The position numbers were made by a program, and so were the translations under genes. From the NCBI RefSeq assembly GCF_003019035.1, contig NZ_CP027447.1: DNA of 64,000 nucleotides, one strand, 5' to 3'. This document shows, piece by piece, positions 4,808-37,435 of this stretch (positions are counted from its first letter, which is position 1; each line of letters starts with the position of its first letter). The notes beneath the pieces were generated by a model, which was not told the DNA's origin, ran no database searches, and saw only the letters and a program-made list of their open reading frames with translations. Source of the DNA: Escherichia coli. Lineage in GTDB: Bacteria; Pseudomonadota; Gammaproteobacteria; Enterobacterales; Enterobacteriaceae.

Positions 4808-5365
4808 ATGAGTGATGAGGGACTGGCGCCAGGAAAACGCTTGTCGGAAATCCGCCAGCAGCAGGGGCTTTCACAACGTCGTGCCGCCGAACTCTCCGGG
4901 CTGACTCACAGTGCTATCAGTACGATAGAACAAGATAAAGTCAGCCCTGCCATCAGTACGCTGCAAAAGCTGCTGAAGGTGTATGGTCTGTCACTCTCGG
5001 AATTCTTTTCCGAGCCGGAAAAACCTGATGAGCCGCAGGTCGTCATTAATCAGGACGACTTAATTGAGATGGGCAGTCAGGGTGTGTCAATGAAGCTGGT
5101 TCATAACGGTAACCCGAATCGCACGCTGGCGATGATCTTTGAAACTTACCAGCCGGGCACAACCACTGGGGAAAGAATTAAGCATCAGGGTGAGGAAATA
5201 GGCACTGTACTGGAAGGTGAAATTGTTCTGACCATTAATGGTCAGGATTATCATCTCGTCGCGGGGCAAAGTTATGCCATTAATACCGGCATCCCGCACA
5301 GTTTCAGTAATACGTCGGCAGGTATTTGCCGAATTATCAGCGCCCATACGCCCACCACGTTTTAA
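4808..5365 (+). CDS. puuR: HTH (XRE) + cupin transcriptional repressor of the puu genes
   Basis: 185 aa; N-terminal HTH (LSQRRAAELSGLTHSAISTIEQ), C-terminal cupin. Confidence 0.9.
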   Translation: MSDEGLAPGKRLSEIRQQQGLSQRRAAELSGLTHSAISTIEQDKVSPAISTLQKLLKVYGLSLSEFFSEPEKPDEPQVVINQDDLIEMGSQGVSMKLVHNGNPNRTLAMIFETYQPGTTTGERIKHQGEEIGTVLEGEIVLTINGQDYHLVAGQSYAINTGIPHSFSNTSAGICRIISAHTPTTF

Positions 5366-5514
5366 TCTTTTTGTTCTGTAAGCCGGGTAAGCGCAATGCG
5401 CCCGGCAATCCATAAAGAATGTCGCCAGAAATAAACGGGCATACGGCCCGGGGATCTCTGCGCCCTGACGTTCACAAACTGCATATATCTGATAGACGTG
5501 AAACAGGAGTCATA

Positions 5515-7002
5515 ATGAATTTTTATCATCTGGCTTACTGGCAGGATAAAGCGTTAAGTCTCGCCATTGAAACCCGCTTATTTATTAACGGTGAATATAC
5601 TGCTGCGGAGGAAAATGAAACTTTTGAAACCGTTGATCCGGTCACCCAGGCACCGCTGGCGAAAATTGCCCGCGGCAAGAGCGTCGATATCGACCGTGCG
5701 GTGAGCGCAGCACGCGGCGTATTTGAACGCGGCGACTGGTCACTCTCTTCTCCGGCTAAACGTAAAGCGGTACTGAATAAACTCGCCGATTTAATGGAAG
5801 CCAACGCCGAAGAGCTGGCACTGCTGGAAACGCTCGACACCGGCAAACCGATTCGTCACAGCCTGCGTGATGATATTCCCGGCGCGGCGCGCGCCATTCG
5901 CTGGTACGCCGAAGCGATCGACAAAGTGTATGGCGAAGTGGCGACCACCAGTAGCCATGAGCTGGCGATGATCGTGCGTGAACCGGTCGGCGTGATTGCC
6001 GCCATCGTGCCGTGGAACTTCCCGCTGCTGCTGACTTGCTGGAAACTCGGCCCGGCGCTGGCGGCGGGAAACAGCGTGATTCTAAAACCGTCTGAAAAAT
6101 CACCGCTCAGTGCGATTCGTCTCGCGGGGCTGGCGAAAGAAGCGGGGCTGCCGGATGGTGTGTTGAACGTGGTGACGGGTTTTGGTCATGAAGCCGGGCA
6201 GGCGCTTTCGCGCCATAACGATATCGATGCCATTGCCTTTACTGGCTCAACCCGCACCGGGAAACAGCTGCTGAAGGACGCGGGCGACAGCAACATGAAA
6301 CGCGTCTGGCTGGAGGCGGGCGGCAAAAGCGCCAACATCGTTTTCGCCGACTGCCCGAATTTGCAACAGGCGGCAAGCGCCACCGCCGCAGGCATTTTCT
6401 ACAACCAGGGCCAGGTGTGCATCGCCGGAACGCGTTTGTTGCTGGAAGAGAGCATCGCCGATGAATTCTTAGCCCTGTTAAAACAGCAGGCGCAAAACTG
6501 GCAGCCGGGCCATCCACTTGATCCCGCAACCACCATGGGCACCTTAATCGACTGCGCCCACGCCGACTCGGTCCATAGCTTTATTCGGGAAGGCGAAAGC
6601 AAAGGGCAACTGCTGCTGGATGGCCGTAACGCCGAGCTGGCTGCCGCCATCGGCCCGACCATCTTTGTGGAGGTAGACCCGAATGCGTCCTTAAGCCGCG
6701 AAGAGATTTTCGGTCCGGTGCTGGTGGTCACGCGTTTCACATCAGAAGAACAGGCGCTACAGCTTGCCAACGACAGCCAGTACGGACTTGGCGCGGCGGT
6801 ATGGACGCGCGACCTCTCCCGCGCGCACCGCATGAGTCGCCGCCTGAAAGCCGGCTCCGTCTTCGTCAATAACTACAACGACGGCGATATGACCGTGCCG
6901 TTTGGCGGCTATAAGCAGAGCGGCAACGGGCGCGACAAATCCCTGCACGCCCTTGAAAAATTCACCGAACTGAAAACTATCTGGATAAGCCTGGAGGCCT
7001 GA
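5515..7002 (+). CDS. puuC: gamma-glutamyl-gamma-aminobutyraldehyde dehydrogenase (NAD(P)-aldehyde dehydrogenase)
   Basis: 495 aa from MNFYHLAYWQDK; ALDH motifs (catalytic Cys in GQVCIAG; ELGGKSA-like EAGGKSA). Confidence 0.9.
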   Translation: MNFYHLAYWQDKALSLAIETRLFINGEYTAAEENETFETVDPVTQAPLAKIARGKSVDIDRAVSAARGVFERGDWSLSSPAKRKAVLNKLADLMEANAEELALLETLDTGKPIRHSLRDDIPGAARAIRWYAEAIDKVYGEVATTSSHELAMIVREPVGVIAAIVPWNFPLLLTCWKLGPALAAGNSVILKPSEKSPLSAIRLAGLAKEAGLPDGVLNVVTGFGHEAGQALSRHNDIDAIAFTGSTRTGKQLLKDAGDSNMKRVWLEAGGKSANIVFADCPNLQQAASATAAGIFYNQGQVCIAGTRLLLEESIADEFLALLKQQAQNWQPGHPLDPATTMGTLIDCAHADSVHSFIREGESKGQLLLDGRNAELAAAIGPTIFVEVDPNASLSREEIFGPVLVVTRFTSEEQALQLANDSQYGLGAAVWTRDLSRAHRMSRRLKAGSVFVNNYNDGDMTVPFGGYKQSGNGRDKSLHALEKFTELKTIWISLEA

Positions 7003-7003
7003 A

Positions 7004-8284
7004 ATGACCGAACATACCAGCAGTTATTACGCCGCCAGTGCGAATAAATACGCACCATTCGACACGCTGAATGAGTCGATTTCCTGCGATGTTTGCGTGG
7101 TCGGCGGCGGCTATACCGGGCTTTCCTCCGCGCTGCATCTGGCGGAAGCGGGCTTTGATGTAGTGGTTCTCGAAGCCTCACGCATCGGCTTCGGCGCAAG
7201 CGGACGCAATGGCGGGCAGCTTGTGAACTCCTACAGCCGCGACATCGACGTGATCGAAAAAAGCTACGGCATGGACACCGCCCGTATGCTCGGCAGCATG
7301 ATGTTTGAAGGCGGAGAGATCATCCGCGAACGTATCAAACGTTATCAGATTGACTGCGACTACCGCCCCGGCGGCCTGTTTGTGGCGATGAATGATAAAC
7401 AGCTCGCCACACTCGAAGAGCAGAAAGAGAACTGGGAACGCTACGGCAATAAACAGCTGGAGCTGCTGGACGCCAACGCTATTCGCCGCGAGGTCGCCAG
7501 CGATCGCTACACTGGTGCGCTGCTGGATCACAGCGGTGGGCATATTCATCCGCTAAACCTCGCCATTGGCGAAGCGGACGCCATCCGCCTGAACGGCGGG
7601 CGCGTGTATGAACTTTCTGCCGTGACGCAGATCCAGCACACCACGCCAGCCGTTGTGCGAACTGCCAAAGGTCAGGTGACGGCGAAATACGTGATTGTCG
7701 CCGGGAATGCGTATCTGGGCGATAAAGTAGAGCCGGAACTAGCGAAACGCAGCATGCCGTGCGGCACGCAGGTGATCACCACCGAACGGCTGTCGGAAGA
7801 TTTAGCCCGTTCGCTGATCCCGAAAAACTACTGTGTGGAAGACTGTAACTATCTGCTTGATTACTACCGCCTGACTGCCGATAACCGCCTGCTGTACGGC
7901 GGCGGAGTGGTCTACGGCGCACGCGACCCGGACGATGTTGAGCGCCTTGTGGTGCCGAAACTGCTGAAAACCTTCCCGCAACTGAAGGGCGTGAAAATTG
8001 ATTACCGCTGGACGGGCAACTTCCTGCTGACCCTGTCACGCATGCCGCAGTTTGGTCGCCTCGATACCAACATCTACTACATGCAGGGCTACAGCGGCCA
8101 CGGCGTCACCTGTACCCACCTCGCCGGGCGTTTGATTGCTGAACTGCTGCGCGGTGACGCCGAGCGTTTCGACGCCTTCGCCAATCTGCCGCATTACCCG
8201 TTCCCCGGCGGGCGCACGCTGCGCGTGCCATTTACCGCGATGGGCGCGGCTTATTACAGCCTGCGCGATCGTCTGGGCGTTTAA
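7004..8284 (+). CDS. puuB: gamma-glutamylputrescine oxidase (FAD-dependent)
   Basis: 426 aa; N-terminal FAD fold VCVVGGGYTGLSSA; starts 1 nt after puuC stop. Confidence 0.9.
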   Translation: MTEHTSSYYAASANKYAPFDTLNESISCDVCVVGGGYTGLSSALHLAEAGFDVVVLEASRIGFGASGRNGGQLVNSYSRDIDVIEKSYGMDTARMLGSMMFEGGEIIRERIKRYQIDCDYRPGGLFVAMNDKQLATLEEQKENWERYGNKQLELLDANAIRREVASDRYTGALLDHSGGHIHPLNLAIGEADAIRLNGGRVYELSAVTQIQHTTPAVVRTAKGQVTAKYVIVAGNAYLGDKVEPELAKRSMPCGTQVITTERLSEDLARSLIPKNYCVEDCNYLLDYYRLTADNRLLYGGGVVYGARDPDDVERLVVPKLLKTFPQLKGVKIDYRWTGNFLLTLSRMPQFGRLDTNIYYMQGYSGHGVTCTHLAGRLIAELLRGDAERFDAFANLPHYPFPGGRTLRVPFTAMGAAYYSLRDRLGV

Positions 8285-8321
8285 TTTCCGATTAACAGTG
8301 AAGAGTCAAAAGGTGTGAAAC

Positions 8322-9587
8322 ATGAGCAACAATGAATTCCATCAGCGTCGTCTTTCTGCTACCCCACGCGGGGTTGGCGTGATGTGTAACTTCTTCGCCC
8401 AGTCGGCAGAAAACGCTACGCTGAAGGACGTAGAGGGCAACGAATACATCGATTTCGCCGCAGGCATTGCGGTGCTGAATACCGGGCATCGCCACCCTGA
8501 TCTGGTCGCGGCGGTGGAGCAGCAATTGCAACAGTTTACCCACACGGCGTATCAGATTGTGCCGTACGAAAGCTACGTCACGCTGGCGGAGAAAATTAAC
8601 GCCCTTGCCCCAGTGAGCGGGCAGGCTAAAACCGCATTCTTCACTACCGGCGCGGAAGCGGTGGAAAACGCGGTGAAAATTGCTCGCGCCCATACCGGAC
8701 GACCTGGCGTGATTGCGTTTAGCGGCGGCTTCCACGGTCGTACATATATGACCATGGCGCTGACCGGAAAAGTTGCGCCGTACAAAATCGGCTTCGGCCC
8801 GTTCCCTGGTTCGGTGTATCACGTACCTTATCCGTCAGATTTACACGGCATTTCAACACAGGACTCCCTCGACGCCATCGAACGCTTGTTTAAATCAGAC
8901 ATCGAAGCGAAGCAGGTGGCGGCGATTATTTTCGAACCGGTGCAGGGCGAGGGCGGTTTCAACGTTGCGCCAAAAGAGCTGGTTGCCGCCATTCGCCGCC
9001 TGTGCGACGAGCACGGCATTGTGATGATTGCCGATGAAGTGCAAAGCGGCTTTGCGCGTACCGGTAAACTGTTTGCCATGGATCATTACGTCGATAAGCC
9101 GGATTTAATGACGATGGCGAAAAGCCTCGCGGGCGGGATGCCGCTTTCGGGCGTGGTCGGTAACGCGAATATTATGGACGCGCCCGCGCCGGGCGGGTTG
9201 GGTGGCACCTACGCCGGGAACCCGCTGGCGGTGGCTGCCGCGCACGCGGTGCTCAATATTATCGACAAAGAATCACTCTGCGAACGCGCGAATCAACTGG
9301 GCCAGCGTCTCAAAAACACGTTGATTGATGCCAAAGAAAGCGTTCCGGCCATTGCTGCGGTACGCGGCCTGGGGTCGATGATTGCGGCAGAGTTTAACGA
9401 TCCGCAAACGGGCGAGCCGTCAGCGGCGATTGCACAGAAAATCCAGCAACGCGCGCTGGCGCAGGGGCTGCTTCTGCTGACCTGTGGCGCATACGGCAAC
9501 GTGATTCGTTTCCTGTATCCGCTGACCATCCTGGATGCGCAATTCGATGCGGCAATGAAAATTTTGCAGGATGCGCTGAAAGATTAA
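8322..9587 (+). CDS. puuE: 4-aminobutyrate aminotransferase (PLP-dependent class III)
   Basis: 421 aa; class-III aminotransferase signature incl. MTMAKSLAGG lysine region. Confidence 0.9.
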   Translation: MSNNEFHQRRLSATPRGVGVMCNFFAQSAENATLKDVEGNEYIDFAAGIAVLNTGHRHPDLVAAVEQQLQQFTHTAYQIVPYESYVTLAEKINALAPVSGQAKTAFFTTGAEAVENAVKIARAHTGRPGVIAFSGGFHGRTYMTMALTGKVAPYKIGFGPFPGSVYHVPYPSDLHGISTQDSLDAIERLFKSDIEAKQVAAIIFEPVQGEGGFNVAPKELVAAIRRLCDEHGIVMIADEVQSGFARTGKLFAMDHYVDKPDLMTMAKSLAGGMPLSGVVGNANIMDAPAPGGLGGTYAGNPLAVAAAHAVLNIIDKESLCERANQLGQRLKNTLIDAKESVPAIAAVRGLGSMIAAEFNDPQTGEPSAAIAQKIQQRALAQGLLLLTCGAYGNVIRFLYPLTILDAQFDAAMKILQDALKD

Positions 9588-9627
9588 TACGCAGAAGCAG
9601 GGTCAACGCAATAATGTCTGATACGCT

Positions 9628-9698
9628 GCGCTTATCAGGCCTGCAAACGACGTATTGATTATGTATGCCGGATAAGGCGTTCACGCCGCATCCGGCAA
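9628..9698. repeat. REP/BIME cluster
   Basis: two REP-like palindromes (GCGCTTATCAGGCCTGC..., TGCCGGATAAGGCGTTCACGCCGCATCCGGCA) between convergent puuE and pspF. Confidence 0.6.
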
Positions 9699-9717
9699 GT
9701 TGTATTGCCCAACTTCG

Positions 9718-10695
9718 CTAAATCTGGTGCTTTTTCAACAACGCGCGGAACTGATGATAGGTTAACCCCAGTAATTCAGCCGCGCGCTTCTGGTTATATT
9801 TCCCTTGTTGCAAACTGAGTTGCAGCAACTCTTTTTCCTGCTGCATCTGAAACTCACGTAAATCCAGCGGCAGTGTTGGAAGCGAGGTGGTTTCTGAAAC
9901 GGCGATAGCGTCTTCAGGCGGACGCCGTTTAAAGGGATCAATAATGATGTCATCAAGCGGATAATCGCTGGTGCCGTGGCGATACACTGAACGTTCCACC
10001 ACGTTTTTCAATTCACGAATATTTCCCGGCCAACGATAATTCAGCAATGTTTCTCTGGCGCGCTCCGTAAAACCCGGGAACAGAGGCAGCTTGATTTCCC
10101 GACACATCTGAATGGCAAAGTGTTCTGCCATCAGCATAATGTCGCTTTCGCGCTCGCGCAGGGGCGGCAGTTGCACTACATCGAAAGCCAGCCGGTCGAG
10201 CAGGTCAGCGCGAAAAGTACCTTCATTGACCATCGCCGGGAGATCGGCATTCGTCGCGCATACCAACCGCACATTCACCTGCAATGGCTGGCTACCGCCA
10301 ACGCGCTCCAGTTCACCGTACTCAATCACACGCAATAATTTTTCCTGCACCATCATCGGTGCCGTAGCGAGTTCATCAAGAAATAGCGTACCGCCATCGG
10401 CACGTTCAAATCTCCCAGGATGACGTTTTTGCGCACCGGTAAACGCCCCCGCTTCGTGACCAAACAGTTCGGAATCCAGCAGATTTTCATTTAACGCCGC
10501 GCAGTTAAGGGAAATAAACGGCCCTTGCCAACGGGAGGAGAGATAATGCAGACGGCTGGCAATCAGCTCTTTACCTGTGCCGCGCTCGCCGATGATGAGC
10601 ACCGGTTTGTCCAGCGGTGCGAGATGCGAAACCTGTTCCAGCACTTCGAGAAAGCTGTTCGCCTCACCGAGTAAATTATCTTTGTATTCTGCCAT
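9718..10695 (-). CDS. pspF: sigma54-dependent activator of the psp operon (AAA+ bEBP lacking receiver domain)
   Basis: 325 aa from MAEYKDNLLGE; Walker A GERGTGKE, GAFTGA motif, C-terminal HTH. Confidence 0.92.
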   Translation of the reverse strand: MAEYKDNLLGEANSFLEVLEQVSHLAPLDKPVLIIGERGTGKELIASRLHYLSSRWQGPFISLNCAALNENLLDSELFGHEAGAFTGAQKRHPGRFERADGGTLFLDELATAPMMVQEKLLRVIEYGELERVGGSQPLQVNVRLVCATNADLPAMVNEGTFRADLLDRLAFDVVQLPPLRERESDIMLMAEHFAIQMCREIKLPLFPGFTERARETLLNYRWPGNIRELKNVVERSVYRHGTSDYPLDDIIIDPFKRRPPEDAIAVSETTSLPTLPLDLREFQMQQEKELLQLSLQQGKYNQKRAAELLGLTYHQFRALLKKHQI

Positions 10696-10789
10696 GATGA
10701 AATTCGCCACTTGTTAGTGTAATTCGCTAATTCATCCTGGCATGTTGCTGTTGATTCTTCAATCAGATCTTTATAAATCAAAAAGATAA

Positions 10790-11530
<741 letters not shown>

Positions 11531-11583
11531 TAACATCCAGGCGGCGTCCGAACGCGCCGCCGCTCATCGTCTAAGGAGTCCTT

Positions 11584-11808
11584 ATGAGCGCGCTATTTCT
11601 GGCTATTCCGTTAACCATTTTTGTGCTGTTTGTTTTACCGATCTGGTTATGGCTGCATTACAGCAATCGTTCTGGTCGCAGTGAATTGTCGCAAAGTGAG
11701 CAGCAGCGATTAGCGCAACTGGCTGATGAAGCAAAACGGATGCGCGAACGTATTCAGGCGCTGGAATCCATTCTTGATGCAGAACATCCGAACTGGAGGG
11801 ATCGCTAA
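11584..11808 (+). CDS. pspB: phage shock protein B (single-TM)
   Basis: 74 aa, N-terminal TM helix; operon position. Confidence 0.9.
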   Translation: MSALFLAIPLTIFVLFVLPIWLWLHYSNRSGRSELSQSEQQRLAQLADEAKRMRERIQALESILDAEHPNWRDR

Positions 11809-12167
11809 TGGCGGGCATTAATCTCAATAAAAAATTATGGCGTATTCCACAGCAGGGCATGGTCCGTGGCGTCTGCGCCGGGATTGCCAACTATTTTGAT
11901 GTACCAGTAAAACTGGTGCGTATCCTGGTGGTGCTGTCGATTTTCTTCGGTCTGGCGCTGTTTACCCTGGTTGCTTACATCATTTTGTCATTTGCGCTTG
12001 ATCCAATGCCGGACAACATGGCCTTTGGTGAGCAGCTACCTTCCAGCAGCGAATTGCTGGATGAAGTCGACCGTGAACTGGCGGCAAGTGAAACGCGTTT
12101 ACGCGAGATGGAACGTTATGTCACTTCCGATACTTTCACGTTACGTAGCCGTTTCCGTCAACTGTGA
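11808..12167 (+). CDS. pspC: phage shock protein C
   Basis: 119 aa; start overlaps pspB stop (ATAATGG); PspC domain. Confidence 0.9.
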
Positions 12168-12175
12168 GGAAAGTT

Positions 12176-12397
12176 ATGAATACTCGCTGGCAACAGGCCG
12201 GGCAAAAGGTGAAGCCTGGGTTCAAATTAGCAGGTAAGCTGGTACTTCTTACCGCACTGCGCTATGGCCCGGCGGGTGTGGCGGGCTGGGCGATAAAATC
12301 AGTTGCTCGCCGACCGCTGAAAATGTTGCTGGCTGTGGCGCTGGAACCGCTGTTAAGTCGGGCTGCCAATAAACTGGCACAGCGTTATAAAAGGTGA
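12176..12397 (+). CDS. pspD: phage shock protein D
   Basis: 73 aa from [11 protein letters not shown]; operon position. Confidence 0.85.
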
Positions 12398-12471
12398 GGG
12401 GAATTTCGCAAAAATTGTTAAAGCTAAGGCGTATTATGGATGGCAATTTTCATCCATAGAAGGACGCTTAC

Positions 12472-12786
12472 ATGTTTAAAAAAGGCTTACTTGCTCTGAC
12501 ACTGGTGTTTTCACTGCCCGTTTTCGCCGCTGAACACTGGATCGATGTTCGTGTTCCAGAGCAGTATCAGCAAGAGCACGTTCAGGGAGCCATCAATATT
12601 CCCCTGAAGGAAGTAAAAGAGCGCATTGCCACCGCCGTTCCGGATAAAAACGACACCGTGAAAGTGTATTGCAATGCCGGACGCCAGTCAGGGCAGGCAA
12701 AAGAGATCCTTAGCGAGATGGGATATACCCACGTTGAGAACGCTGGCGGCCTGAAAGACATCGCAATGCCGAAGGTCAAAGGTTAA
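12472..12786 (+). CDS. pspE: periplasmic rhodanese (thiosulfate sulfurtransferase)
   Basis: 104 aa with signal peptide; rhodanese active-site Cys in VYCNAGRQS. Confidence 0.9.
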   Translation: MFKKGLLALTLVFSLPVFAAEHWIDVRVPEQYQQEHVQGAINIPLKEVKERIATAVPDKNDTVKVYCNAGRQSGQAKEILSEMGYTHVENAGGLKDIAMPKVKG

Positions 12787-12801
12787 CAAATTACTTATTG
12801 A

Positions 12802-12830
12802 GCGGTGTAAACAACGCCGCTTATTCATTT
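12802..12830 (+). terminator. putative intrinsic terminator after pspE
   Basis: GCGGTGTAAACAACGCCGC hairpin followed by TTATTCATTT. Confidence 0.45.
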
Positions 12831-12904
12831 GATAAATCAAAATTAACCCACATTATTATCTCCAGTATCTAATCCTTTCTACAGCTTTCTGGCACAGGAC
12901 AGCA

Positions 12905-14302
12905 ATGAAGCGACTTAAAAATGAACTTAATGCGCTGGTGAATCGGGGTGTCGACAGACATCTGCGCCTCGCCGTAACCGGACTTAGCCGCAGCGGCAAA
13001 ACGGCGTTTATCACTGCGATGGTCAATCAGTTGCTCAATATTCACGCCGGAGCAAGGTTGCCGCTGTTAAGCGCGGTGCGTGAAGAACGGCTGCTGGGCG
13101 TAAAACGCATTCCCCAGCGTGACTTTGGCATTCCGCGCTTCACCTATGATGAAGGGCTGGCGCAGTTATATGGCGATCCACCCGCCTGGCCAACGCCAAC
13201 GCGCGGCGTCAGCGAAATTCGCCTGGCGCTACGTTTTAAATCGAACGATTCGCTGCTACGCCACTTTAAGGATACCTCCACGCTGTATCTGGAGATTGTG
13301 GATTATCCCGGCGAATGGTTGCTCGACCTGCCGATGCTGGCGCAGGACTATTTAAGCTGGTCGCGCCAGATGACGGGCTTACTTAATGGTCAGCGCGGCG
13401 AATGGTCGGCGAAATGGCGAATGATGTGCGAAGGGCTGGACCCGCTAGCGCCTGCCGACGAAAACCGGCTGGCAGACATTGCCGCCGCCTGGACCGAGTA
13501 TCTCCACCACTGCAAACAGCAGGGGTTGCACTTTATTCAGCCTGGGCGCTTTGTCTTGCCGGGAGATATGGCAGGAGCACCCGCGCTGCAATTCTTCCCG
13601 TGGTCGGATGTCGATGCCTGGGGCGAGTCCAAACTGGCGCAGGCCGATAAGCATACCAATGCCGGAATGCTGCGCGAGCGGTTTAATTATTACTGCGAGA
13701 AAGTGGTGAAGGGGTTCTATAAGAATCATTTTCTGCGCTTTGACCGCCAGATTGTGCTGGTGGATTGCCTGCAACCTCTCAACAGTGGGCCACAGGCATT
13801 TAATGATATGCGTCTGGCGCTGACGCAGCTGATGCAAAGTTTCCACTACGGGCAGCGAACCCTGTTCCGGCGTTTGTTTTCACCGGTTATCGATAAGCTA
13901 TTGTTTGCTGCCACTAAAGCAGACCATGTGACCATCGATCAGCACGCCAATATGGTTTCATTACTGCAACAACTGATTCAGGATGCCTGGCAAAATGCGG
14001 CGTTCGAAGGGATCAGCATGGACTGCCTGGGGCTGGCGTCAGTTCAGGCGACCACCAGCGGCATTATTGATGTTAACGGTGAGAAAATCCCGGCGCTGCG
14101 CGGTAATCGACTCAGCGATGGCGCACCGCTCACTGTTTATCCTGGCGAAGTTCCCGCTCGTTTGCCCGGTCAGGCGTTCTGGGATAAGCAAGGCTTCCAG
14201 TTTGAGGCGTTTCGTCCGCAGGTGATGGATGTTGACAAACCGCTGCCGCATATTCGCCTTGATGCTGCGCTGGAATTTTTAATAGGAGATAAATTGCGAT
14301 GA
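12905..14302 (+). CDS. ycjX: YcjX-family P-loop NTPase of unknown function
   Basis: 465 aa; Walker [11 protein letters not shown]; paired with ycjF. Confidence 0.85.
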
Positions 14303-15360
14303 CCGAACCGTTAAAACCACGTATTGATTTCGACGGTCCGCTGGATGTCGATCAGAATCCTGAATTCAGGGCGCAGCAGACCTTTGACGAAAATCAGGCA
14401 CAAAATTTTGCCCCGGCCACACTCGACGAAGCGCCTGAAGAAGAGGGGCAAGTTGAAGCGGTAATGGATGCAGCGTTACGTCCTAAACGCAGCCTGTGGC
14501 GCAAAATGGTGATGGGCGGGCTGGCTCTGTTTGGCGCAAGCGTTGTCGGGCAGGGGGTACAGTGGACAATGAATGCCTGGCAAACCCAGGACTGGGTAGC
14601 GCTGGGTGGATGTGCCGCAGGGGCATTGATTATCGGCGCTGGCGTAGGTTCTGTGGTAACAGAGTGGCGGCGCTTATGGCGCTTGCGACAGCGCGCCCAT
14701 GAACGCGACGAAGCGCGTGATTTATTGCACAGCCATGGCACCGGCAAAGGCCGCGCATTTTGCGAAAAACTGGCGCAGCAGGCGGGCATCGATCAGTCAC
14801 ATCCGGCTCTGCAACGCTGGTATGCCTCAATCCATGAAACGCAAAACGACCGTGAAGTGGTCAGTTTGTATGCGCATTTGGTCCAGCCAGTTTTAGATGC
14901 CCAGGCGCGGCGCGAAATCAGCCGTTCGGCAGCGGAATCAACATTGATGATTGCGGTCAGCCCGCTGGCGCTGGTGGATATGGCATTTATCGCCTGGCGC
15001 AATCTGCGTTTGATTAATCGCATCGCCACGCTGTATGGCATTGAACTGGGGTATTACAGCCGTTTGCGCCTGTTCAAGCTGGTATTGCTGAATATCGCTT
15101 TCGCTGGAGCCAGCGAACTGGTGCGCGAAGTGGGGATGGACTGGATGTCGCAAGATCTCGCTGCTCGTTTGTCTACCCGCGCAGCTCAGGGGATTGGTGC
15201 AGGACTTCTGACGGCACGACTGGGGATTAAAGCTATGGAGCTTTGCCGCCCGCTGCCGTGGCTTGACGATGACAAGCCACGCCTCGGGGATTTCCGTCGT
15301 CAGCTTATCGGTCAGGTGAAAGAAACTCTGCAAAAAGGCAAAACGCCCAGCGAAAAATAA
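14299..15360 (+). CDS. ycjF: YcjF-family inner-membrane protein (DUF697)
   Basis: 353 aa; start overlaps ycjX stop (ATGA) implying translational coupling; TM segments. Confidence 0.85.
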
Positions 15361-15419
15361 TGCAATATCGGGTGCTGACCGGATATCTTTACGCCGAAGT
15401 GCCCGTTTTTCCGTCTTTG

Positions 15420-15437
15420 TGTCAATGATTGTTGACA
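15420..15437. promoter_or_regulatory. TyrR box-like palindrome upstream of tyrR
   Basis: TGTCAA-N6-TTGACA resembles TyrR box consensus TGTAAA-N6-TTTACA; about 70 bp upstream of tyrR ATG. Confidence 0.5.
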
Positions 15438-15507
15438 GAAACCTTCCTGCTATCCAAATAGTGTCATATCATCATATTAATTGTTCTTTTTTCAGGTGAA
15501 GGTTCCC

Positions 15508-17049
15508 ATGCGTCTGGAAGTCTTTTGTGAAGACCGACTCGGTCTGACCCGCGAATTACTCGATCTACTCGTGCTAAGAGGCATTGATTTACGCGGTATT
15601 GAGATTGACCCCATTGGGCGAATCTACCTCAATTTTGCTGAACTGGAGTTTGAGAGTTTCAGCACTCTGATGGCCGAAATACGCCGTATTGCAGGTGTTA
15701 CCGATGTGCGTACTGTCCCGTGGATGCCTTCCGAACGTGAGCATCTGGCGTTGAGCGCGTTACTGGAGGCGTTGCCTGAACCTGTGCTTTCTGTCGATAT
15801 GAAAAGCAAAGTGGATATGGCGAACCCGGCGAGCTGTCAGCTTTTTGGGCAAAAATTGGATCGCCTGCGCAACCATACCGCCGCGCAATTGATTAACGGC
15901 TTTAATTTTTTACGCTGGCTGGAAAGCGAACCGCAAGATTCGCATAACGAGCATGTCGTTATTAATGGGCAGAATTTCCTGATGGAGATTACGCCTGTTT
16001 ATCTTCAGGATGAAAATGATCAACACGTCCTGACCGGTGCGGTGGTGATGCTGCGATCAACGATTCGTATGGGCCGTCAGTTGCAAAATGTCGCTGCCCA
16101 GGACGTCAGCGCCTTTAGTCAAATTGTCGCCGTCAGCCCGAAAATGAAGCATGTTGTCGAACAGGCGCAGAAACTGGCGATGCTAAGCGCGCCACTGCTG
16201 ATTACGGGTGATACCGGCACCGGAAAAGATCTCTTTGCCTACGCCTGTCATCAGGCAAGCCCCAGAGCGAGCAAACCTTACCTGGCGCTGAACTGTGCGT
16301 CTATACCGGAAGATGCGGTCGAGAGTGAACTGTTTGGTCATGCTCCGGAAGGGAAGAAAGGGTTCTTTGAGCAGGCGAACGGTGGTTCGGTGCTGTTGGA
16401 TGAAATAGGGGAAATGTCACCACGGATGCAGGCGAAATTACTGCGTTTCCTTAATGATGGCACCTTCCGTCGGGTTGGCGAAGACCATGAGGTGCATGTC
16501 GATGTGCGGGTGATTTGTGCTACGCAGAAGAATCTGGTCGAACTGGTGCAAAAAGGCGTGTTCCGTGAAGATCTCTATTATCGTCTGAACGTGTTGACGC
16601 TCAATCTGCCGCCGCTACGTGACTGTCCGCAGGACATCATGCCGTTAACCGAGCTGTTCGTCGCCCGCTTTGCCGACGAGCAGGGCGTGCCGCGTCCGAA
16701 ACTGGCCGCTGATCTGAATACTGTACTTACGCGTTATGCGTGGCCGGGAAATGTGCGGCAGTTAAAGAACGCTATCTATCGTGCACTGACACAACTGGAC
16801 GGTTATGAGCTGCGTCCACAGGATATTTTGTTGCCGGATTATGACGCCGCAACGGTAGCCGTGGGCGAAGATGCGATGGAAGGTTCGCTGGACGAAATCA
16901 CCAGCCGTTTTGAACGCTCGGTATTAACCCAGCTTTATCGCAATTATCCCAGCACGCGCAAACTGGCAAAACGTCTCGGCGTTTCACATACCGCGATTGC
17001 CAATAAGTTGCGGGAATATGGTCTGAGTCAGAAGAAGAACGAAGAGTAA
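15508..17049 (+). CDS. tyrR: aromatic amino acid regulator TyrR (ACT-PAS-AAA+-HTH)
   Basis: 513 aa from MRLEVFCEDRLGLTRELLDLL; Walker A GDTGTGKD; ESELFGH motif. Confidence 0.95.
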   Translation: MRLEVFCEDRLGLTRELLDLLVLRGIDLRGIEIDPIGRIYLNFAELEFESFSTLMAEIRRIAGVTDVRTVPWMPSEREHLALSALLEALPEPVLSVDMKSKVDMANPASCQLFGQKLDRLRNHTAAQLINGFNFLRWLESEPQDSHNEHVVINGQNFLMEITPVYLQDENDQHVLTGAVVMLRSTIRMGRQLQNVAAQDVSAFSQIVAVSPKMKHVVEQAQKLAMLSAPLLITGDTGTGKDLFAYACHQASPRASKPYLALNCASIPEDAVESELFGHAPEGKKGFFEQANGGSVLLDEIGEMSPRMQAKLLRFLNDGTFRRVGEDHEVHVDVRVICATQKNLVELVQKGVFREDLYYRLNVLTLNLPPLRDCPQDIMPLTELFVARFADEQGVPRPKLAADLNTVLTRYAWPGNVRQLKNAIYRALTQLDGYELRPQDILLPDYDAATVAVGEDAMEGSLDEITSRFERSVLTQLYRNYPSTRKLAKRLGVSHTAIANKLREYGLSQKKNEE

Positions 17050-17055
17050 GCGTGA

Positions 17056-17088
17056 ATATGCCTGATGGTGCAACACCATCAGGCATAT
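17056..17088. terminator. bidirectional intrinsic terminator between convergent tyrR and tpx
   Basis: perfect palindrome ATATGCCTGATGGTG-CA-ACACCATCAGGCATAT. Confidence 0.7.
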
Positions 17089-17092
17089 TAAC

Positions 17093-17599
17093 TTATGCTT
17101 TCAGTACAGCCAGAGCTGCTTCGTAATCCGGCTCGGTGGTGATTTCATCCACCAGCTGGCTGAAAATCACATTGTCATTTTCATCAATAACCACAACGGC
17201 ACGCGCTGCCAGACCTTTCAGTGGGCCATCAGCAATTGCCACACCGTAGGCTTGCAGGAATTCAGCGTTACGGAAAGTGGAGAGGGTGATAACGTTGTTC
17301 AGACCTTCTGCGCCGCAGAAACGAGACTGGGCGAATGGCAGATCGGCAGAGATACACAGCACAACGGTGTTGTCGATCTCGGTTGCCAGTTGGTTAAACT
17401 TACGTACTGATGCGGCGCAAACACCGGTATCAATACTCGGGAAAATGTTCAGCACTTTGCGTTTACCCGCAAACTGACCGAGGGTGACGTCAGACAGATC
17501 TTTTGCCACGAGAGTAAAAGTCTGCGCTTTGCTACCCGCCTGCGGGATGGAATTGGCGACTGTAACCGGGTTGCCCTGGAAATGAACGGTTTGTGACAT
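17093..17599 (-). CDS. tpx: thiol peroxidase (atypical 2-Cys peroxiredoxin)
   Basis: 168 aa; peroxidatic Cys in TGVCA; sequence recognised. Confidence 0.95.
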
Positions 17600-17717
17600 G
17601 ATTATCTTTCCTGTTTACATATAGTTAACGTCACACCTAGTTTATGCTAACTGTCAATAACACAGCAAACGCTATTTGCGCTTAATCCGCAGACCACCGC
17701 GACAACAAGGAGTAAAG

Positions 17718-18683
17718 ATGAGAACCGTTAAGGTATTTGAGGAGGCCTGGCCCTTACATACCCCGTTTGTGATTGCCCGGGGAAGTCGCAGTGAAGCGCG
17801 CGTGGTGGTGGTTGAACTGGAAGAAGATGGCGTCAAAGGTACGGGCGAATGTACGCCTTATCCGCGCTATGGCGAAAGTGATGCCTCGGTAATGGCGCAA
17901 ATTATGAGCGTCGTGCCGCAATTAGAGAAAGGGCTGACACGGGAGGAGTTACAAAAAATCCTCCCTGCCGGCGCAGCACGTAATGCGCTGGATTGTGCAT
18001 TGTGGGATCTCGCGGCGCGAAAACAGCAGGAATCGCTGGCTGATTTGATCGGCATAACGCTTCCCGGGACAGTTATCACTGCACAGACGGTAGTCATCGG
18101 TACGCCTGATCAGATGGCCAATAGTGCATCAACACTCTGGCAGGCAGGCGCGAAATTACTGAAAGTGAAGCTGGATAACCATCTTATCAGTGAGCGGATG
18201 GTGGCAATTCGCACCGCTGTGCCCGATGCGACGCTGATCGTTGATGCAAATGAATCCTGGCGTGCAGAAGGGTTGGCGGCGCGTTGCCAGCTATTGGCGG
18301 ATTTAGGCGTTGCGATGCTTGAACAACCGCTTCCTGCGCAGGACGATGCGGCACTGGAGAATTTTATTCATCCGTTGCCGATTTGTGCTGATGAAAGTTG
18401 TCATACTCGTAGCAATCTGAAGGCGCTGAAAGGGCGCTATGAGATGGTTAACATTAAGCTTGATAAAACCGGTGGTCTGACGGAAGCGCTGGCGCTGGCG
18501 ACTGAAGCACGTGCACAAGGTTTTAGTCTGATGCTGGGCTGCATGTTGTGTACCTCTCGGGCCATTAGCGCCGCTTTACCGCTGGTGCCGCAGGTCAGTT
18601 TCGCCGATCTTGACGGACCGACCTGGCTGGCGGTAGATGTGGAACCGGCGCTTCAGTTCACGACGGGCGAATTGCATCTTTAG
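17718..18683 (+). CDS. ycjG: L-Ala-D/L-Glu epimerase (enolase superfamily)
   Basis: 321 aa from MRTVKVFEEAW; enolase-superfamily fold; adjacent to mpaA. Confidence 0.85.
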   Translation: MRTVKVFEEAWPLHTPFVIARGSRSEARVVVVELEEDGVKGTGECTPYPRYGESDASVMAQIMSVVPQLEKGLTREELQKILPAGAARNALDCALWDLAARKQQESLADLIGITLPGTVITAQTVVIGTPDQMANSASTLWQAGAKLLKVKLDNHLISERMVAIRTAVPDATLIVDANESWRAEGLAARCQLLADLGVAMLEQPLPAQDDAALENFIHPLPICADESCHTRSNLKALKGRYEMVNIKLDKTGGLTEALALATEARAQGFSLMLGCMLCTSRAISAALPLVPQVSFADLDGPTWLAVDVEPALQFTTGELHL

Positions 18684-19386
18684 GATGCCAGCGCAGCAAG
18701 TTTGCCATCGCAAAGAGATATTTTTCGCTGGCTTCGTCGGAGGAGATGGGTGGAAACTCTGCGGTGATGCAATGCAAGTTGAGATCTGCACACCAACTGC
18801 CGAAAGAGCCAGGCGTTTCATAACCGACGCTGGTTACCAGAGGCAATTCAAACGCCTGGGCCAGCCATTCACCTAATTCGCTGTGTCTGGGATCTTCAAT
18901 ACAGGCTAGCGGATCGTGGAATGAGACCACCCAGGCAGGTTGAATGCGGTGTATAAGTTGGCACAGCGCCTGGGTTTCAGGTTCGGAGCCAGGTTTGTCA
19001 CCTGTCAGTAAAACGACATTACGTTCTTCAGCGGCGCTGTTCCAGCGATAAACTGTTTCACCTTCCTTCCAGTTCGCTGCCGGAAAGTTTCGGTTTAAAT
19101 CCACACCATTAGCATTGGCCCGTAACCCTAACTGGCAGCCGTCAGGATTCACACACAGCACCACATGATGGCGGCGCAAAGACGGTGTCAAAGTCCGCAG
19201 AGCACAGGAGAGCGTGACGATCGAAGAGTTTTCATCACCGTGAGTGCCAGCCAGAATCAAACCACTTTCGTGACTGGCTGCAGGGGCCGGAAACCAGATT
19301 AACGGCGCGCCCAATAATGAACGTCCGTAATGTTCTGTACCGGGCGGAAATGCGCCGCGTTCGGCGCGTGGGCGAGTTACGGTCAT
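18658..19386 (-). CDS. mpaA: murein tripeptide amidase A (M14 zinc carboxypeptidase-like)
   Basis: 242 aa from MTVTRPRAERGAF; HGDE zinc motif; 3' end overlaps ycjG 3' end by 26 bp. Confidence 0.85.
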   Translation of the reverse strand: MTVTRPRAERGAFPPGTEHYGRSLLGAPLIWFPAPAASHESGLILAGTHGDENSSIVTLSCALRTLTPSLRRHHVVLCVNPDGCQLGLRANANGVDLNRNFPAANWKEGETVYRWNSAAEERNVVLLTGDKPGSEPETQALCQLIHRIQPAWVVSFHDPLACIEDPRHSELGEWLAQAFELPLVTSVGYETPGSFGSWCADLNLHCITAEFPPISSDEASEKYLFAMANLLRWHPKDAIRPS

Positions 19387-19568
19387 GATCGTCTCTGGTT
19401 CAGGAAGTATTACAGGCAGTGTTGTGCAAATTTTGCGGATTATCAAATCCTTTTCTTCAACGCTATGTTATCGATCTTGTATCACTTTTTTGCCGGAAGT
19501 TGTTTGCATTTCTTTAAGGCGAAACAAATAATTACGCATCAATTTTAATGTCGGTTAGAGGGAAACTT

Positions 19569-21182
19569 ATGAAGCACTCTGTTTCAGTCACGTGTTGTGC
19601 GCTGTTGGTCAGCAGCATTTCTCTTTCGTATGCTGCTGAAGTTCCGAGCGGCACAGTACTGGCAGAGAAGCAGGAGCTGGTGCGCCACATTAAAGATGAG
19701 CCAGCGTCGCTGGATCCCGCTAAAGCCGTGGGCCTGCCGGAGATTCAGGTCATTCGCGATCTGTTTGAAGGACTGGTGAATCAGAACGAGAAAGGGGAGA
19801 TTGTCCCCGGCGTTGCGACTCAGTGGAAAAGTAATGACAACCGTATCTGGACTTTTACCCTGCGCGATAACGCAAAATGGGCGGATGGCACACCGGTAAC
19901 GGCGCAAGATTTTGTCTACAGCTGGCAACGTCTGGTGGACCCGAAAACGCTATCGCCATTTGCATGGTTTGCCGCGCTGGCGGGAATCAACAACGCACAG
20001 GCGATTATTGATGGTAAAGCCGCGCCTGACCAGCTTGGCGTCACCGCAGTTGATGCCCATACTTTGAAAATCCAGCTTGATAAACCATTGCCGTGGTTTG
20101 TGAATTTAACCGCTAACTTTGCCTTCTTCCCGGTGCAAAAAGCCAACGTAGAAAGCAGTAAAGAGTGGACGAAACCCGGAAATCTGATCGGTAATGGCGC
20201 TTATGTTCTTAAAGAGCGCGTAGTCAATGAAAAACTGGTCGTGGTACCGAATACCCATTATTGGGATAACGCCAAAACGGTGCTGCAAAAAGTGACCTTC
20301 CTGCCAATTAATCAGGAATCCGCAGCCACTAAGCGTTATCTCGCGGGGGATATTGATATCACCGAATCCTTCCCGAAAAATATGTATCAGAAGCTGTTGA
20401 AGGATATTCCGGGGCAGGTTTATACGCCGCCGCAGCTCGGGACCTATTATTATGCGTTTAACACGCAAAAAGGGCCGACGGCAGATCAGCGAGTTCGTCT
20501 GGCATTAAGTATGACGATAGATCGCCGCCTGATGACCGAAAAAGTATTAGGGACGGGCGAAAAGCCAGCGTGGCATTTTACACCAGATGTTACTGCAGGA
20601 TTTACGCCGGAACCTTCGCCGTTTGAACAAATGAGTCAGGAAGAACTGAATGCGCAGGCAAAAACTTTGTTGAGCGCAGCTGGTTATGGTCCGCAAAAAC
20701 CGCTGAAGTTGACGCTTTTGTATAACACTTCAGAAAACCATCAAAAAATTGCGATTGCTGTAGCATCGATGTGGAAAAAGAACCTGGGTGTAGATGTTAA
20801 ATTGCAAAACCAGGAATGGAAAACCTATATCGATAGCCGTAACACCGGCAATTTTGATGTTATCCGCGCCTCGTGGGTAGGTGATTATAATGAACCCTCC
20901 ACTTTCCTGACATTATTAACGTCAACGCATTCCGGGAATATTTCACGCTTTAACAATCCGGCATATGACAAAGTTCTGGCCCAGGCATCGACGGAAAATA
21001 CCGTTAAAGCGCGTAATGCCGATTACAACGCGGCAGAAAAAATCCTCATGGAGCAAGCACCGATTGCACCAATTTATCAATATACCAATGGACGATTAAT
21101 CAAGCCGTGGCTGAAAGGTTATCCCATTAATAACCCTGAAGATGTGGCGTACAGTCGGACTATGTATATTGTGAAGCATTGA
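19569..21182 (+). CDS. mppA: periplasmic murein tripeptide-binding protein (ABC SBP family 5)
   Basis: 537 aa from MKHSVSVTCCALLVSSISLSYA (signal peptide); OppA-like. Confidence 0.9.
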   Translation: MKHSVSVTCCALLVSSISLSYAAEVPSGTVLAEKQELVRHIKDEPASLDPAKAVGLPEIQVIRDLFEGLVNQNEKGEIVPGVATQWKSNDNRIWTFTLRDNAKWADGTPVTAQDFVYSWQRLVDPKTLSPFAWFAALAGINNAQAIIDGKAAPDQLGVTAVDAHTLKIQLDKPLPWFVNLTANFAFFPVQKANVESSKEWTKPGNLIGNGAYVLKERVVNEKLVVVPNTHYWDNAKTVLQKVTFLPINQESAATKRYLAGDIDITESFPKNMYQKLLKDIPGQVYTPPQLGTYYYAFNTQKGPTADQRVRLALSMTIDRRLMTEKVLGTGEKPAWHFTPDVTAGFTPEPSPFEQMSQEELNAQAKTLLSAAGYGPQKPLKLTLLYNTSENHQKIAIAVASMWKKNLGVDVKLQNQEWKTYIDSRNTGNFDVIRASWVGDYNEPSTFLTLLTSTHSGNISRFNNPAYDKVLAQASTENTVKARNADYNAAEKILMEQAPIAPIYQYTNGRLIKPWLKGYPINNPEDVAYSRTMYIVKH

Positions 21183-22264: not shown

Positions 22265-22507
22265 TGTTTTATCAGGCTCCTCCAGATAATTGTCGTCATG
22301 CCGGAAACCCCTGGCGGGGCTATTTTACCGCGACAATTCATTCAGATCATCAATAGTCAGGGAAGTAAGTAGCAACATTAGCTAACAAATCAATGCATTG
22401 ATTGTAAATCCAGCTAAGAGGTGAGGTTTTCAGAGCAGACAAGAGTGAAATGTCATGGTATTGTTACGTTTAGGTAACAAGAAATTTGTCTGCACAAGGA
22501 TTACATC

Positions 22508-26952: not shown

Positions 26953-28398
26953 TTATTTTAAAGGTGACGGTGTCACGTTTTTCGGGATAGGGCAGTGATA
27001 CGGTTGCGTGTCCGTAACTTGCTGATGCTCTTGTTGGCATTCTTGCAATAGCCCTGAATCAATGAAGAGATTAAGTGTGGTTGCTGCCATAGTTTTCGCC
27101 GCCAGCAGCATTCCTTTATGAGCAATAGATGTTCGCCCCTGGCTAACCAGTTGCCACGTATGTAGCGGGGTACCGACGGCAAAACAGGGGCTGAAACACT
27201 GGGCAACAGGCAGTTTCCAACTGACGTCGCCGACATCAGTCGATGCCGCAAGCACGTTATCGGTGGCGGCATATGGAGCGACTTCATTCGCCAGTACCGT
27301 TTCACGATGACGTAGTGCAAAAGCCTTGCCGTTTTCGCCACCGGTTGCGGCGATATTATTCAGACTGTTTTGCCGATCGTTGGGGGTGAGCGTAGCCTGA
27401 ATTTGTTTCGCAAAAGCCAGTTCTTCGGAGTTCCATTCCGGGGTAGCAAAATGGGATAGGGCTCGGTACATGGCATTTTCTAAGGTGCGATTCGGGAGAT
27501 AACTGGAACAGGCTTTGTCGAAGCGGCATTCAACCGTGGTTTCGGTCATCAATGCCGCACCTTCGGCGATTTTGGCGACCCGATCATAAATATGCTGCAC
27601 ATCGGTCATTTCGGGGGCGCGGATAAGATAAAGCACTTCTGCCTGCGCCTGGACCTCGTTGGGCGAGATCCCGCCGCTATCTGTGATGGCATAGTGTACG
27701 CGCGCTTTTTCAATAATATGTTCGTTGAGGAAGTTGGTGCCAGTGGTCATCAACGTTACGGCATCAAGGGCGCTGCGTCCCAAATGAGGGGAATTCGCGG
27801 CATGTGCTGCGATCCCTTTAAAGCGCCATGATGCCTGAATGTTTGCCAGCGTGCGGGTATTGAACATACCGGCAAAGGCTTCCGGGTGCCATGTGAGTGC
27901 CGCATCCACATCATCAAATACCCCCTCGCGGACCATGAACGTTTTACCCGAGCCGCCTTCTTCGCCAGGACAACCATAAAAGCGCACTGTGCCGCCTTGC
28001 CCATATTGTTCCAGCCATTTCTTGACGGCTATTGCAGCGGCAAAGGCGGCAGTTCCCAGCAAATTGTGTCCGCAACCGTGACCATTTTCACCGGGCGTCG
28101 CGGATGTAGGTTGCGCGCAACCTGCTTGCTGACTTAAACCTGCCAGGGCGTCATATTCCCCCAGCAGGGCGATAACCGGTTTGCCTTGACCAAACGAAGC
28201 AATAAAGGCATTTGGGATATTGCCTACGTTGCGGGTAACGGTGAAGCCTGCAGACTCCAGCGCCGAAGCCAGATGCTCCGCTGACCAGAACTCTTCAAAA
28301 CGTGTTTCTGGATGATCCCAGATTTGATCGGCAATATCGGTATAACGTTGGCGATCGGCTTCAATCGCATCGTCGATAAAACGATAGATTTCCTGCAT
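26953..28398 (-). CDS. abgB: p-aminobenzoyl-glutamate hydrolase subunit B (M20 peptidase family)
   Basis: 481 aa; M20 metal-binding region GCPGEEGGSGK...; start ATG shares nucleotides with the upstream ORF stop (ATGA at 28398). Confidence 0.9.
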   Translation of the reverse strand: MQEIYRFIDDAIEADRQRYTDIADQIWDHPETRFEEFWSAEHLASALESAGFTVTRNVGNIPNAFIASFGQGKPVIALLGEYDALAGLSQQAGCAQPTSATPGENGHGCGHNLLGTAAFAAAIAVKKWLEQYGQGGTVRFYGCPGEEGGSGKTFMVREGVFDDVDAALTWHPEAFAGMFNTRTLANIQASWRFKGIAAHAANSPHLGRSALDAVTLMTTGTNFLNEHIIEKARVHYAITDSGGISPNEVQAQAEVLYLIRAPEMTDVQHIYDRVAKIAEGAALMTETTVECRFDKACSSYLPNRTLENAMYRALSHFATPEWNSEELAFAKQIQATLTPNDRQNSLNNIAATGGENGKAFALRHRETVLANEVAPYAATDNVLAASTDVGDVSWKLPVAQCFSPCFAVGTPLHTWQLVSQGRTSIAHKGMLLAAKTMAATTLNLFIDSGLLQECQQEHQQVTDTQPYHCPIPKNVTPSPLK

Positions 28399-29301
28399 CA
28401 GATACCTCGCGTCCAGGGAAAATTGAGCGCGGTGCGCGCCAGCGTTTCGACGGCAATAGCGAGAACCTGCTCGTCAAAATCGAATTTTTCATTGTGATGA
28501 CCTGCCGCCAGCTGTGTGCCAAATACCATGTAGGAGGCTTGCCCTTGATGTCGCTGCACGCGGGCCATCATTAATGTGGCATCTTCGGAACCCGCAGGCG
28601 CTTCAACACGTTCAATGGCCTGATTGACCCCCGCGACCTGAGCCGCCTGGATTTGCAACCATGCGACCCATTGCGGCGAAGGAGAACTGGCGGTAGCTGC
28701 ACCCATCAGACGAGTTTCAACGCCGACACCATACATGGTTGCTGCGCCCTGAATCGCTTGTTGTGCACGGTCAAAAACATATTGATTAATGACGTCGCTG
28801 GCCCCGCGTGTTTCCACTTTCAGCAACGCTGAGGCGGGAACAACATTACGACCGCTTCCTGCCTGCATAACGCCCACGTTTACTCTGGAAGCGCCTTCGC
28901 TGTGCGGGGCGATGGCTGACATCCTGCTCTTCACTGAAATCCAGCGCGTCCATATCGACACGGAAAGCCATCACCGGACCGGGGCGACCGGTATCCAGGG
29001 TAGCGACGATGCCAGTGAAACCGCCTTCAAAAGCCGCAATCCATTGTTCTAGCGCCCCCTGTTGACGAGCGCGCTCGAATTCGCGTTGTAGAGTGAATTC
29101 ATCAGGTAATCCCATCCGGCTACTTTCATTAACGACTTCGCGGCCCAGCGCCAGTGAATAACCGAGCTGGTGCAATTCTTCCGCAACAACGGTGGCAGTG
29201 CGGAATTCCACCCAGCCAGACTCTGCATAGTGGTGAAAATCACGTCGCCAGTACGATAATTTTGGGGCAAGCGAATTAATAAATTGATTCAAAGACTCCA
29301 T
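28398..29301 (-). pseudogene. abgA: abgA (M20D amidohydrolase subunit A) disrupted by internal deletion and frameshift
   Basis: N-terminal 5' part (MESLNQFINSLAPKL...DMDALDFSEEQDVSH) and C-terminal part (AIAPHSEGASRVNVGVMQAGSGRNVVP...FPWTRGI) lie in different frames; the central metal-binding segment expected for M20D enzymes is absent; total span 904 bp versus about 1.3 kb expected. Confidence 0.75.
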
Positions 29302-35749: not shown

Positions 35750-36685
35750 TTATTTCACTTCAACCACATTCAGTCGTAACTCATCCAACTGATTTTCATC
35801 TTCTTCAGGCTGCCAACCCGCCGGTTGTAGAGGGATCTCTTCGCGATCAAACGCCAGATCACCCCCGTTAACCACTTCAGAACCGTGGGTAATGCCTTTG
35901 AAATCGAACAGGTTGGTATCGCACAGATGCGACGGCACCACATTCTGCATCGCGCTGAACATCGTCTCGATACGCCCCGGATAACGTTTATCCCAGTCAC
36001 GCAACATGTCAGCAATCACCTGACGTTGCAGGTTAGGCTGTGAACCGCACAGGTTGCACGGAATAATCGGGAACGCTTTTGCATCGGCAAAGCGCTGAAT
36101 ATCTTTCTCGCGGCAGTAGGCCAGCGGACGAATAACGATATGTTTGCCATCATCGCTCATCAGTTTCGGAGGCATACCTTTCATCTTGCCGCCGTAGAAC
36201 ATATTTAAGAACAGCGTTTGCAGGATATCGTCACGATGGTGACCCAACGCGATCTTCGTCGCCCCCAGTTCCGTTGCGGTGCGATAAAGGATACCGCGAC
36301 GAAGACGAGAACACAGTGAGCAAGTGGTTTTGCCCTCCGGAATCTTCTCTTTCACGATACCGTAAGTGTTCTCTTCCACAATCTTGTACTCAACGCCCAG
36401 CTTTTCAAGATACTCGGGCAGAACGTGTTCCGGGAAGCCCGGTTGTTTTTGATCGAGGTTAACAGCCACCAGCGAAAAATTGATTGGCGCGCTTTGCTGC
36501 AAATTGCGCAGAATTTCCAGCATGGTATAGCTGTCTTTACCCCCGGAGAGGCAAACCATGATGCGATCGCCTTCTTCAATCATATTGAAGTCAGCAATGG
36601 CTTCGCCCACGTTACGACGCAGACGTTTTTGTAATTTGTTCAGGTTGTATTGTTCTTTCTTACTAATTTCTTGATTTTGCGACAT
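35750..36685 (-). CDS. ttcA: tRNA 2-thiocytidine(32) synthetase (PP-loop ATPase)
   Basis: 311 aa; PP-loop SGGKDS; CxxC pairs; appears intact. Confidence 0.92.
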
Positions 36686-36853: not shown

Positions 36854-36860
36854 GTTAGTG

Positions 36861-37376
<516 letters not shown>

Positions 37377-37427: not shown

Positions 37428-37435
37428 AGGAGGAT

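Follow-up and report, generated by a model that had tools for sequence, protein, structure and literature searches.

Why are pspE and ycjX immediate neighbours in an Escherichia coli chromosome, when in K-12 MG1655 the pspE stop codon and the ycjX start are separated by 14,113 bp containing ycjM, N, O, P, Q, R, S, T, U, the pseudogenes ycjV/ymjB, ompG and ycjW? In the window, by which we mean the whole stretch of 64,000 nucleotides that was analysed, pspE is followed on the same strand by ycjX after a gap of 118 bp, as seen from the open reading frames and from the same gene names in the RefSeq annotation of strain SCU-301. The original prediction had noticed this adjacency and had placed a sugar cluster and ompG between the two genes in K-12. 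Its placement of both genes was accurate and its K-12 map correct, and alignment of the whole window with K-12 confirmed that a block of ~14 kb is missing from the window and that pspE and ycjX do not adjoin in K-12. Two explanations had been offered, an ancestral empty site and a scarless deletion. We consider it highly probable that the spacer is a natural, ancestral-type pspE-ycjX region, and that the empty and the island-bearing alleles both circulate and recombine in E. coli.

The locus and its natural background

The genes and spacer elements of the locus are collected in Table 1. The first 25 kb of the window match E. coli SCU-301 along their entire length, and a direct comparison over 57 kb found six differing positions. 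SCU-301 is a commensal of phylogroup F and ST967, obtained by rectal swab from a healthy student (PMC11251922), and the window is natural E. coli DNA. The PspE protein encoded here is identical to that of strain 042 (WP_000473128.1). As a side observation, the differences from SCU-301 sit at window positions 9190-9194, 9603, 19020, 51036 and 60421, with none elsewhere in the 57 kb compared; an extra G at 9190 leaves puuE "frameshifted" in SCU-301, while puuE of the window (8322-9587) is intact, a difference that may go back to a sequencing error in either record.

Table 1. Genes and spacer elements of the pspE-ycjX locus, in window coordinates.
Feature	Position	Strand	Basis
pspF, activator of the psp operon	9718..10695	-	ORF and RefSeq annotation of the near-identical SCU-301
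pspA, pspB, pspC, pspD	10862..12397	+	ORFs and SCU-301 annotation
pspE, rhodanese (thiosulfate sulfurtransferase)	12472..12786	+	ORF and SCU-301 annotation
pspE-ycjX spacer, uninterrupted, 118 bp, empty site	12787..12904	+	Sequence and alignments
Predicted pspE intrinsic terminator, 10-bp stem, 5-nt loop, T-rich tail	12799..12833	+	Terminator scan and fold
Part of the spacer without K-12 counterpart	12806..12891	.	Alignments; K-12 has 14,081 bp (1370023-1384103) instead
Putative sigma-32-type ycjX promoter	12829..12854	+	Motif conservation in alignments
ycjX, DUF463, YcjX family GTP-binding protein	12905..14302	+	ORF and SCU-301 annotation
ycjF, DUF697 membrane protein	14299..15360	+	ORF and SCU-301 annotation
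tyrR, end gene of the reported ycjX-ycjF-tyrR transcription unit	15508..17049	+	ORF and SCU-301 annotation; PMC3041696

The spacer and the K-12 island

Homology to K-12 stops at 12786 in a strict blastn search, or at 12805 with megablast, and restarts at 12892, 13 nt 5' of the ycjX ATG; 86-105 bp of the window replace ~14.1 kb of K-12. The pspE and ycjX flanks are 96-97% identical between the window and K-12, and a sliding profile stays at 95-99% identity throughout, with no clear peak in divergence at the junction. The segment 12806-12891 is homologous to spacers of E. albertii and of a cryptic-clade genome. Compared with the pspE-ycjM and ycjW-ycjX spacers of K-12, the spacer of the window gave local alignments no better than those of shuffled sequences, except over the final 13 nt. 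The idea that K-12 retains terminator and promoter remnants homologous at the sequence level was dropped on these grounds, and a motif-level resemblance remains.

Within the spacer, a hairpin at 12799-12823 folds at -14.7 kcal/mol (z = -4.25; 0 of 200 shuffles as good) and is followed by the moderately T-rich tail TTCATTTGAT. It is the sole terminator-like site that the scan found in the region, and by its sequence features the hairpin with its tail qualifies as a predicted Rho-independent terminator of pspE; in K-12 a comparable hairpin stands directly 3' of pspE. Because this hairpin lies between them, pspE and ycjX are unlikely to form one operon. An Rfam scan returned nothing at the junction. 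Sigma-32 promoters have a TTGAAA-like -35 and a CCCCATnT-like -10 element as their consensus. The spacer contains TTGATAA at 12829-12835 and CCCACATT at 12847-12854. TTGATAA also occurs in Escherichia, Citrobacter and some Enterobacter loci, and most of the Enterobacteriaceae loci aligned, with the island or without it, have a CCCCAT-like element about as far from the ycjX ATG. A sigma-32 promoter has been reported for ycjX, and ycjX, ycjF and tyrR are described as one unit (PMC3041696, which cites Nonaka 2006); from the conservation of the motifs we infer that TTGATAA...CCCACATT is probably this promoter. The same motifs, being conserved in loci with and without the island, would place the E. 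coli island downstream of the terminator of pspE and upstream of the promoter of ycjX.

No integrase or transposase gene is found in the island in the annotations of K-12, CS5L and O145, and neither a tRNA or tmRNA target nor terminal direct repeats were found for it; the two K-12 junctions have a single repeat in common, a T-rich run of 11 nt. The right end of the cassette is marked by the first ~70 nt adjacent to ycjW, a stretch that is conserved in E. coli and Citrobacter alike. K-12 and B2 strains differ by ~4.5% over the island, which is therefore itself old in E. coli. Whereas CS5L and O145 have an intact ycjV, that of K-12 is a pseudogene, and decay of the island seems to be under way in several lineages.

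Frequency of the two alleles in E. coli

A probe of 151 bp spanning the junction was searched in 5,426 complete E. coli genomes and found the junction in 372 (~7%), at an identity of at least 99.3%, in a single copy and always on the chromosome, and the ompG-ycjW segment of K-12 is present in 5,046 genomes of the same set. Since the empty and occupied states together cover all but ~8 genomes, the locus is a clean two-allele polymorphism with ~7% empty. The empty strains include 042, PCN033, SCU-313 (phylogroup D, ST69), SCU-102 (D, ST973), SCU-301 (F, ST967) and 14EC033 (ST2064), and genomes with the empty junction come from humans, animals, food and water. The empty allele lies on several flanking haplotypes, with 100%, ~98.8%, ~98% and ~97.7% identity over 829 bp. 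A literature search on the phylogroup distribution of ompG or the ycj cluster returned nothing relevant. The empty pspE-ycjX junction is a common, publicly annotated natural allele, with nothing mechanistically new about it; found in ~7% of complete genomes, including strains of phylogroups D and F, it can be used as a clean binary marker. In these searches, window 12472-13300 also gave 12 pspE/ycjX matches, and ompG-ycjW six, on records labelled as plasmids, which may be parts of the chromosome assigned to the wrong replicon or copies that have truly been mobilised.

Other differences elsewhere in the window

Outside the pspE-ycjX locus, the window differs from K-12 at several further sites. 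Between mpaA and mppA (19482-19511) the window lacks ymjC-ymjD-ycjY-pgrR, a K-12 block of ~2.4 kb that reaches ~3.1 kb in other strains, where it includes an SDR gene; SCU-172 and AR_0077 are without it too. Its ends in K-12 form an imperfect direct repeat of ~30 nt (TCACTTTTTTG..GGAAGTTGTTTGCATTT), and one copy is left in the window. The window also lacks the ~23-kb Rac prophage of K-12, its ttcA being intact (36636-36678, the 5' end of ttcA), and the K-12 IS5F insertion, near 22382-22385; the stretch between puuR and puuC is ~122 bp longer in K-12 than in the window (5412-5414). The abgA gene (~28398-29301, minus strand) is annotated as frameshifted in SCU-301. At window ~47540-54280, ydbL is directly followed by an intact autotransporter gene of 5,964 bp with internal diverged tandem repeats at ~48650-48954; the K-12 map at this site we take to be feaRB-tynA-paa, with ydbA a disrupted pseudogene. 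Identity to K-12 is 95.3% across uspF, an ompN-like porin gene (ompC in the SCU-301 annotation) and ydbK/nifJ (36636-43660), below the 97-98% of the remaining window.

Which state is older

The outgroup survey covered one genome per species with YcjX, amounting to 80 loci (exclusive of E. fergusonii, other named Escherichia species and Salmonella) onto which the K-12 proteins were mapped. The island adjoins ycjX in four of the 80 loci, and at eight the available sequence contains no psp gene; in nearly all the remaining loci, from Enterobacterales and Vibrionaceae, the last psp gene lies within ~1 kb upstream of ycjXF, a linkage that has already been described (Huvet et al., 2011, PMC3041696; Darwin, 2005, cited there). 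Direct succession of pspE and ycjX is found in E. albertii, SCPM-O-B-8794, Citrobacter youngae and Phytobacter. Of these, SCPM-O-B-8794 is labelled E. coli but is only ~91% identical to the window, and it probably represents a cryptic Escherichia clade. The spacer of the window is collinear with both close outgroups, with 15 differences in 118 bp from E. albertii and 90 of 100 positions identical to SCPM-O-B-8794. The flanking genes, at 88-92% identity, show the same divergence from these outgroups as the spacer. Weaker similarity of the spacer, comprising TTGATAA and downstream blocks, reaches as far as Citrobacter. Introgression from E. albertii was considered and rejected, the flanks being at the normal between-species distance (88-92%).

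The cassette itself is found at other places in other genera. In Citrobacter sp. FP75 the same 12 genes lie between pspD and pspE, in the order ycjW-pspE-ycjX (4832-19657 of its locus), and the gene order of C. werkmanii likewise puts the cassette between pspD and pspE, while in Enterobacter cloacae, Superficieibacter and Siccibacter it is directly upstream of ycjX with no pspE between. This use of different neighbouring sites across genera argues for independent placement of the cassette, and therefore for a derived position in E. coli. With psp followed by ycjXF as the rule in Enterobacterales and in many Vibrionaceae loci, the spacer would be of the ancestral type and the island a derived insertion. 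The comparisons thus support the view that the island-free spacer represents the ancestral-type allele and that the E. coli island was inserted into an ancestral site, so that the ancestral empty site of the original prediction holds at the level of the allele, whose spacer is collinear with, and 87-90% identical to, those of E. albertii and the cryptic lineage. At the pspE-ycjX locus, it is worth remembering, the gene order of K-12 would then be the derived one. In a search for an island donor among 19 genomes the 100 nt upstream of ycjX in K-12 proved about equally distant from all those compared. A further reading treats the pspD/pspE/ycjX interval as a cross-genus hotspot whose alleles are an old polymorphism kept by recombination and selection, not a product of simple gain or loss; we think this unlikely, if far from negligible.

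How the empty allele may have arisen in this lineage

That a K-12-like chromosome lost the island by a spontaneous and precise deletion would agree with the absence of the island and of any visible remnant, but we hold it to be very improbable. The segment of the spacer between 12806 and 12891 has no K-12 counterpart and matches E. albertii at species-level divergence, and because 86-105 bp of the spacer are absent from K-12-type chromosomes, a deletion from such a chromosome could not have yielded it. Moreover, the known deletions at this locus and in the window leave gene fragments or microhomology. The island of SCU-172 has a 5.3-kb internal deletion that fuses ycjO' to 'ycjT (16006-17760 of its locus), a deletion that is probably shared by four further genomes giving matches of the same span, and abgA of the window, compared with K-12, has lost 400 bp internally between direct repeats of 8 bp, GGGGCGAT (28906-28913). 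The pspE-ycjX junction is without the signatures of the abgA, SCU-172 and ycjY-pgrR deletions; it contains no notable repeats and no plausible remnant or small open reading frames, in line with what had been remarked from the sequence at the start. To an engineered deletion or an assembly artefact, for which the clean junction and nothing more can be cited, we attach next to no weight, as 372 independent complete genomes have the same junction, with natural isolates making up most of those listed, and the window matches the natural commensal isolate SCU-301. No FRT-like scar was found (0 matches at up to three mismatches in the whole window). Between a natural and an engineered boundary, the check proposed at the outset came out in favour of the natural one.

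The sequences around the spacer form a mosaic. All 118 bp of the spacer are identical in the window, 042, 14EC033 and AR_0077. In 395 bp at the 5' end of ycjX, the window differs at 17 sites (~4%) from the empty strain 042, and at none and one, respectively, from the island-bearing strains CS5L and SCU-172. PspE of CS5L and SCU-172 is WP_000473109.1, unlike the 042 allele WP_000473128.1 of the window, and by its SNPs at 12423-12499 the window falls with 042 and SCU-313, both empty, and apart from island-bearing strains. The close relatives in the flanks, SCU-172 (phylogroup F, ST379) and CS5L, do have an island, intact or internally deleted. That the window (F) and 042 (D) have an identical spacer despite the difference in ycjX hints at a recent transfer of the empty allele, not long vertical retention. 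Given the mosaic of flanking SNPs and the presence of the island in close F relatives, the simplest mechanism that we infer is a swap of empty and island alleles by homologous recombination via pspE and ycjX, in either direction.

One particular course of such an exchange is that a short tract, roughly from pspD/pspE to the start of ycjX, passed from an island-free D-like donor to an island-bearing F ancestor of the ST967 lineage, whose 14-kb island was thereby swapped for the ancestral spacer. The ycjX start near-identical to those of CS5L and SCU-172, the PspE allele and SNPs of 042 type and the spacer shared with 042 all fit such a replacement. Over 25 kb, though, the genomes that rank next in similarity, AR_0077 and LR-28, are empty too, and the empty state may be old in this sub-lineage; a reverse import of the island into CS5L-like strains would also fit the same SNP pattern. 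We regard this replacement as a serious possibility, while leaning slightly against it. It is compatible with the ancestral nature of the allele and bears only on how the allele reached this strain. The scarless deletion that had been suggested therefore falls as far as a K-12-type chromosome is concerned, whereas acquisition of the empty allele by the lineage through recombination may have occurred and would look alike.

Under the preferred reading of a natural, ancestral-type spacer, the region would never have been interrupted in the history of this allele, with the terminator hairpin of pspE followed by the promoter region of ycjX-ycjF-tyrR. The ~93% of complete genomes with the derived allele would carry, between terminator and promoter, a 14-kb cassette without mobility genes, whose genes serve glycoside catabolism and ABC transport or encode OmpG, a porin, and YcjW, a repressor. 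The empty and the derived allele would both go on circulating, exchanged by homologous recombination through the pspE and ycjX flanks.

Consequences and comparison with known systems

The K-12 cluster has been assigned to kojibiose and glucosylglycerate catabolism, together with the OmpG porin and the YcjW repressor, and loss or mutation of ycjW in K-12 leads to higher pspE expression and PspE-dependent H2S production (PMC6599011). A strain with the empty allele would be expected to lack the pathway of YcjT kojibiose phosphorylase and YcjM glucosylglycerate phosphorylase with its ABC transporter, as well as OmpG and YcjW, and, there being no YcjW, the YcjW-PspE "emergency H2S" circuit of K-12 (PMC6599011) presumably cannot exist in empty strains. 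The practical importance of the empty allele is modest.

Among known systems, a classical integrative island with its empty attB shares with this locus the presence or absence of a multi-gene block at a fixed site; unlike it, the block at pspE-ycjX has no integrase, tRNA/tmRNA target or flanking direct repeats and consists of metabolic, transport, porin and regulator genes only. The ycjMNOPQRSTUV-ompG-ycjW cluster of K-12 occupies exactly this site and is wholly absent from the window, and the residual spacers on its two sides cannot be aligned with the spacer of the window beyond the last 13 nt and the motif-level resemblance of terminator and promoter. The psp-ycjXF loci of Enterobacterales and Vibrionaceae likewise have ycjX-ycjF, often with tyrR, directly behind psp and in the same orientation, but most genera have no pspE, and ycjX follows pspD or pspC, whereas the window has pspE and a hairpin before ycjX. 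The nearest counterparts are 042 and the other island-free E. coli, which have the same spacer and gene order as the window and differ from it in their flanking alleles, as in a recombination mosaic.
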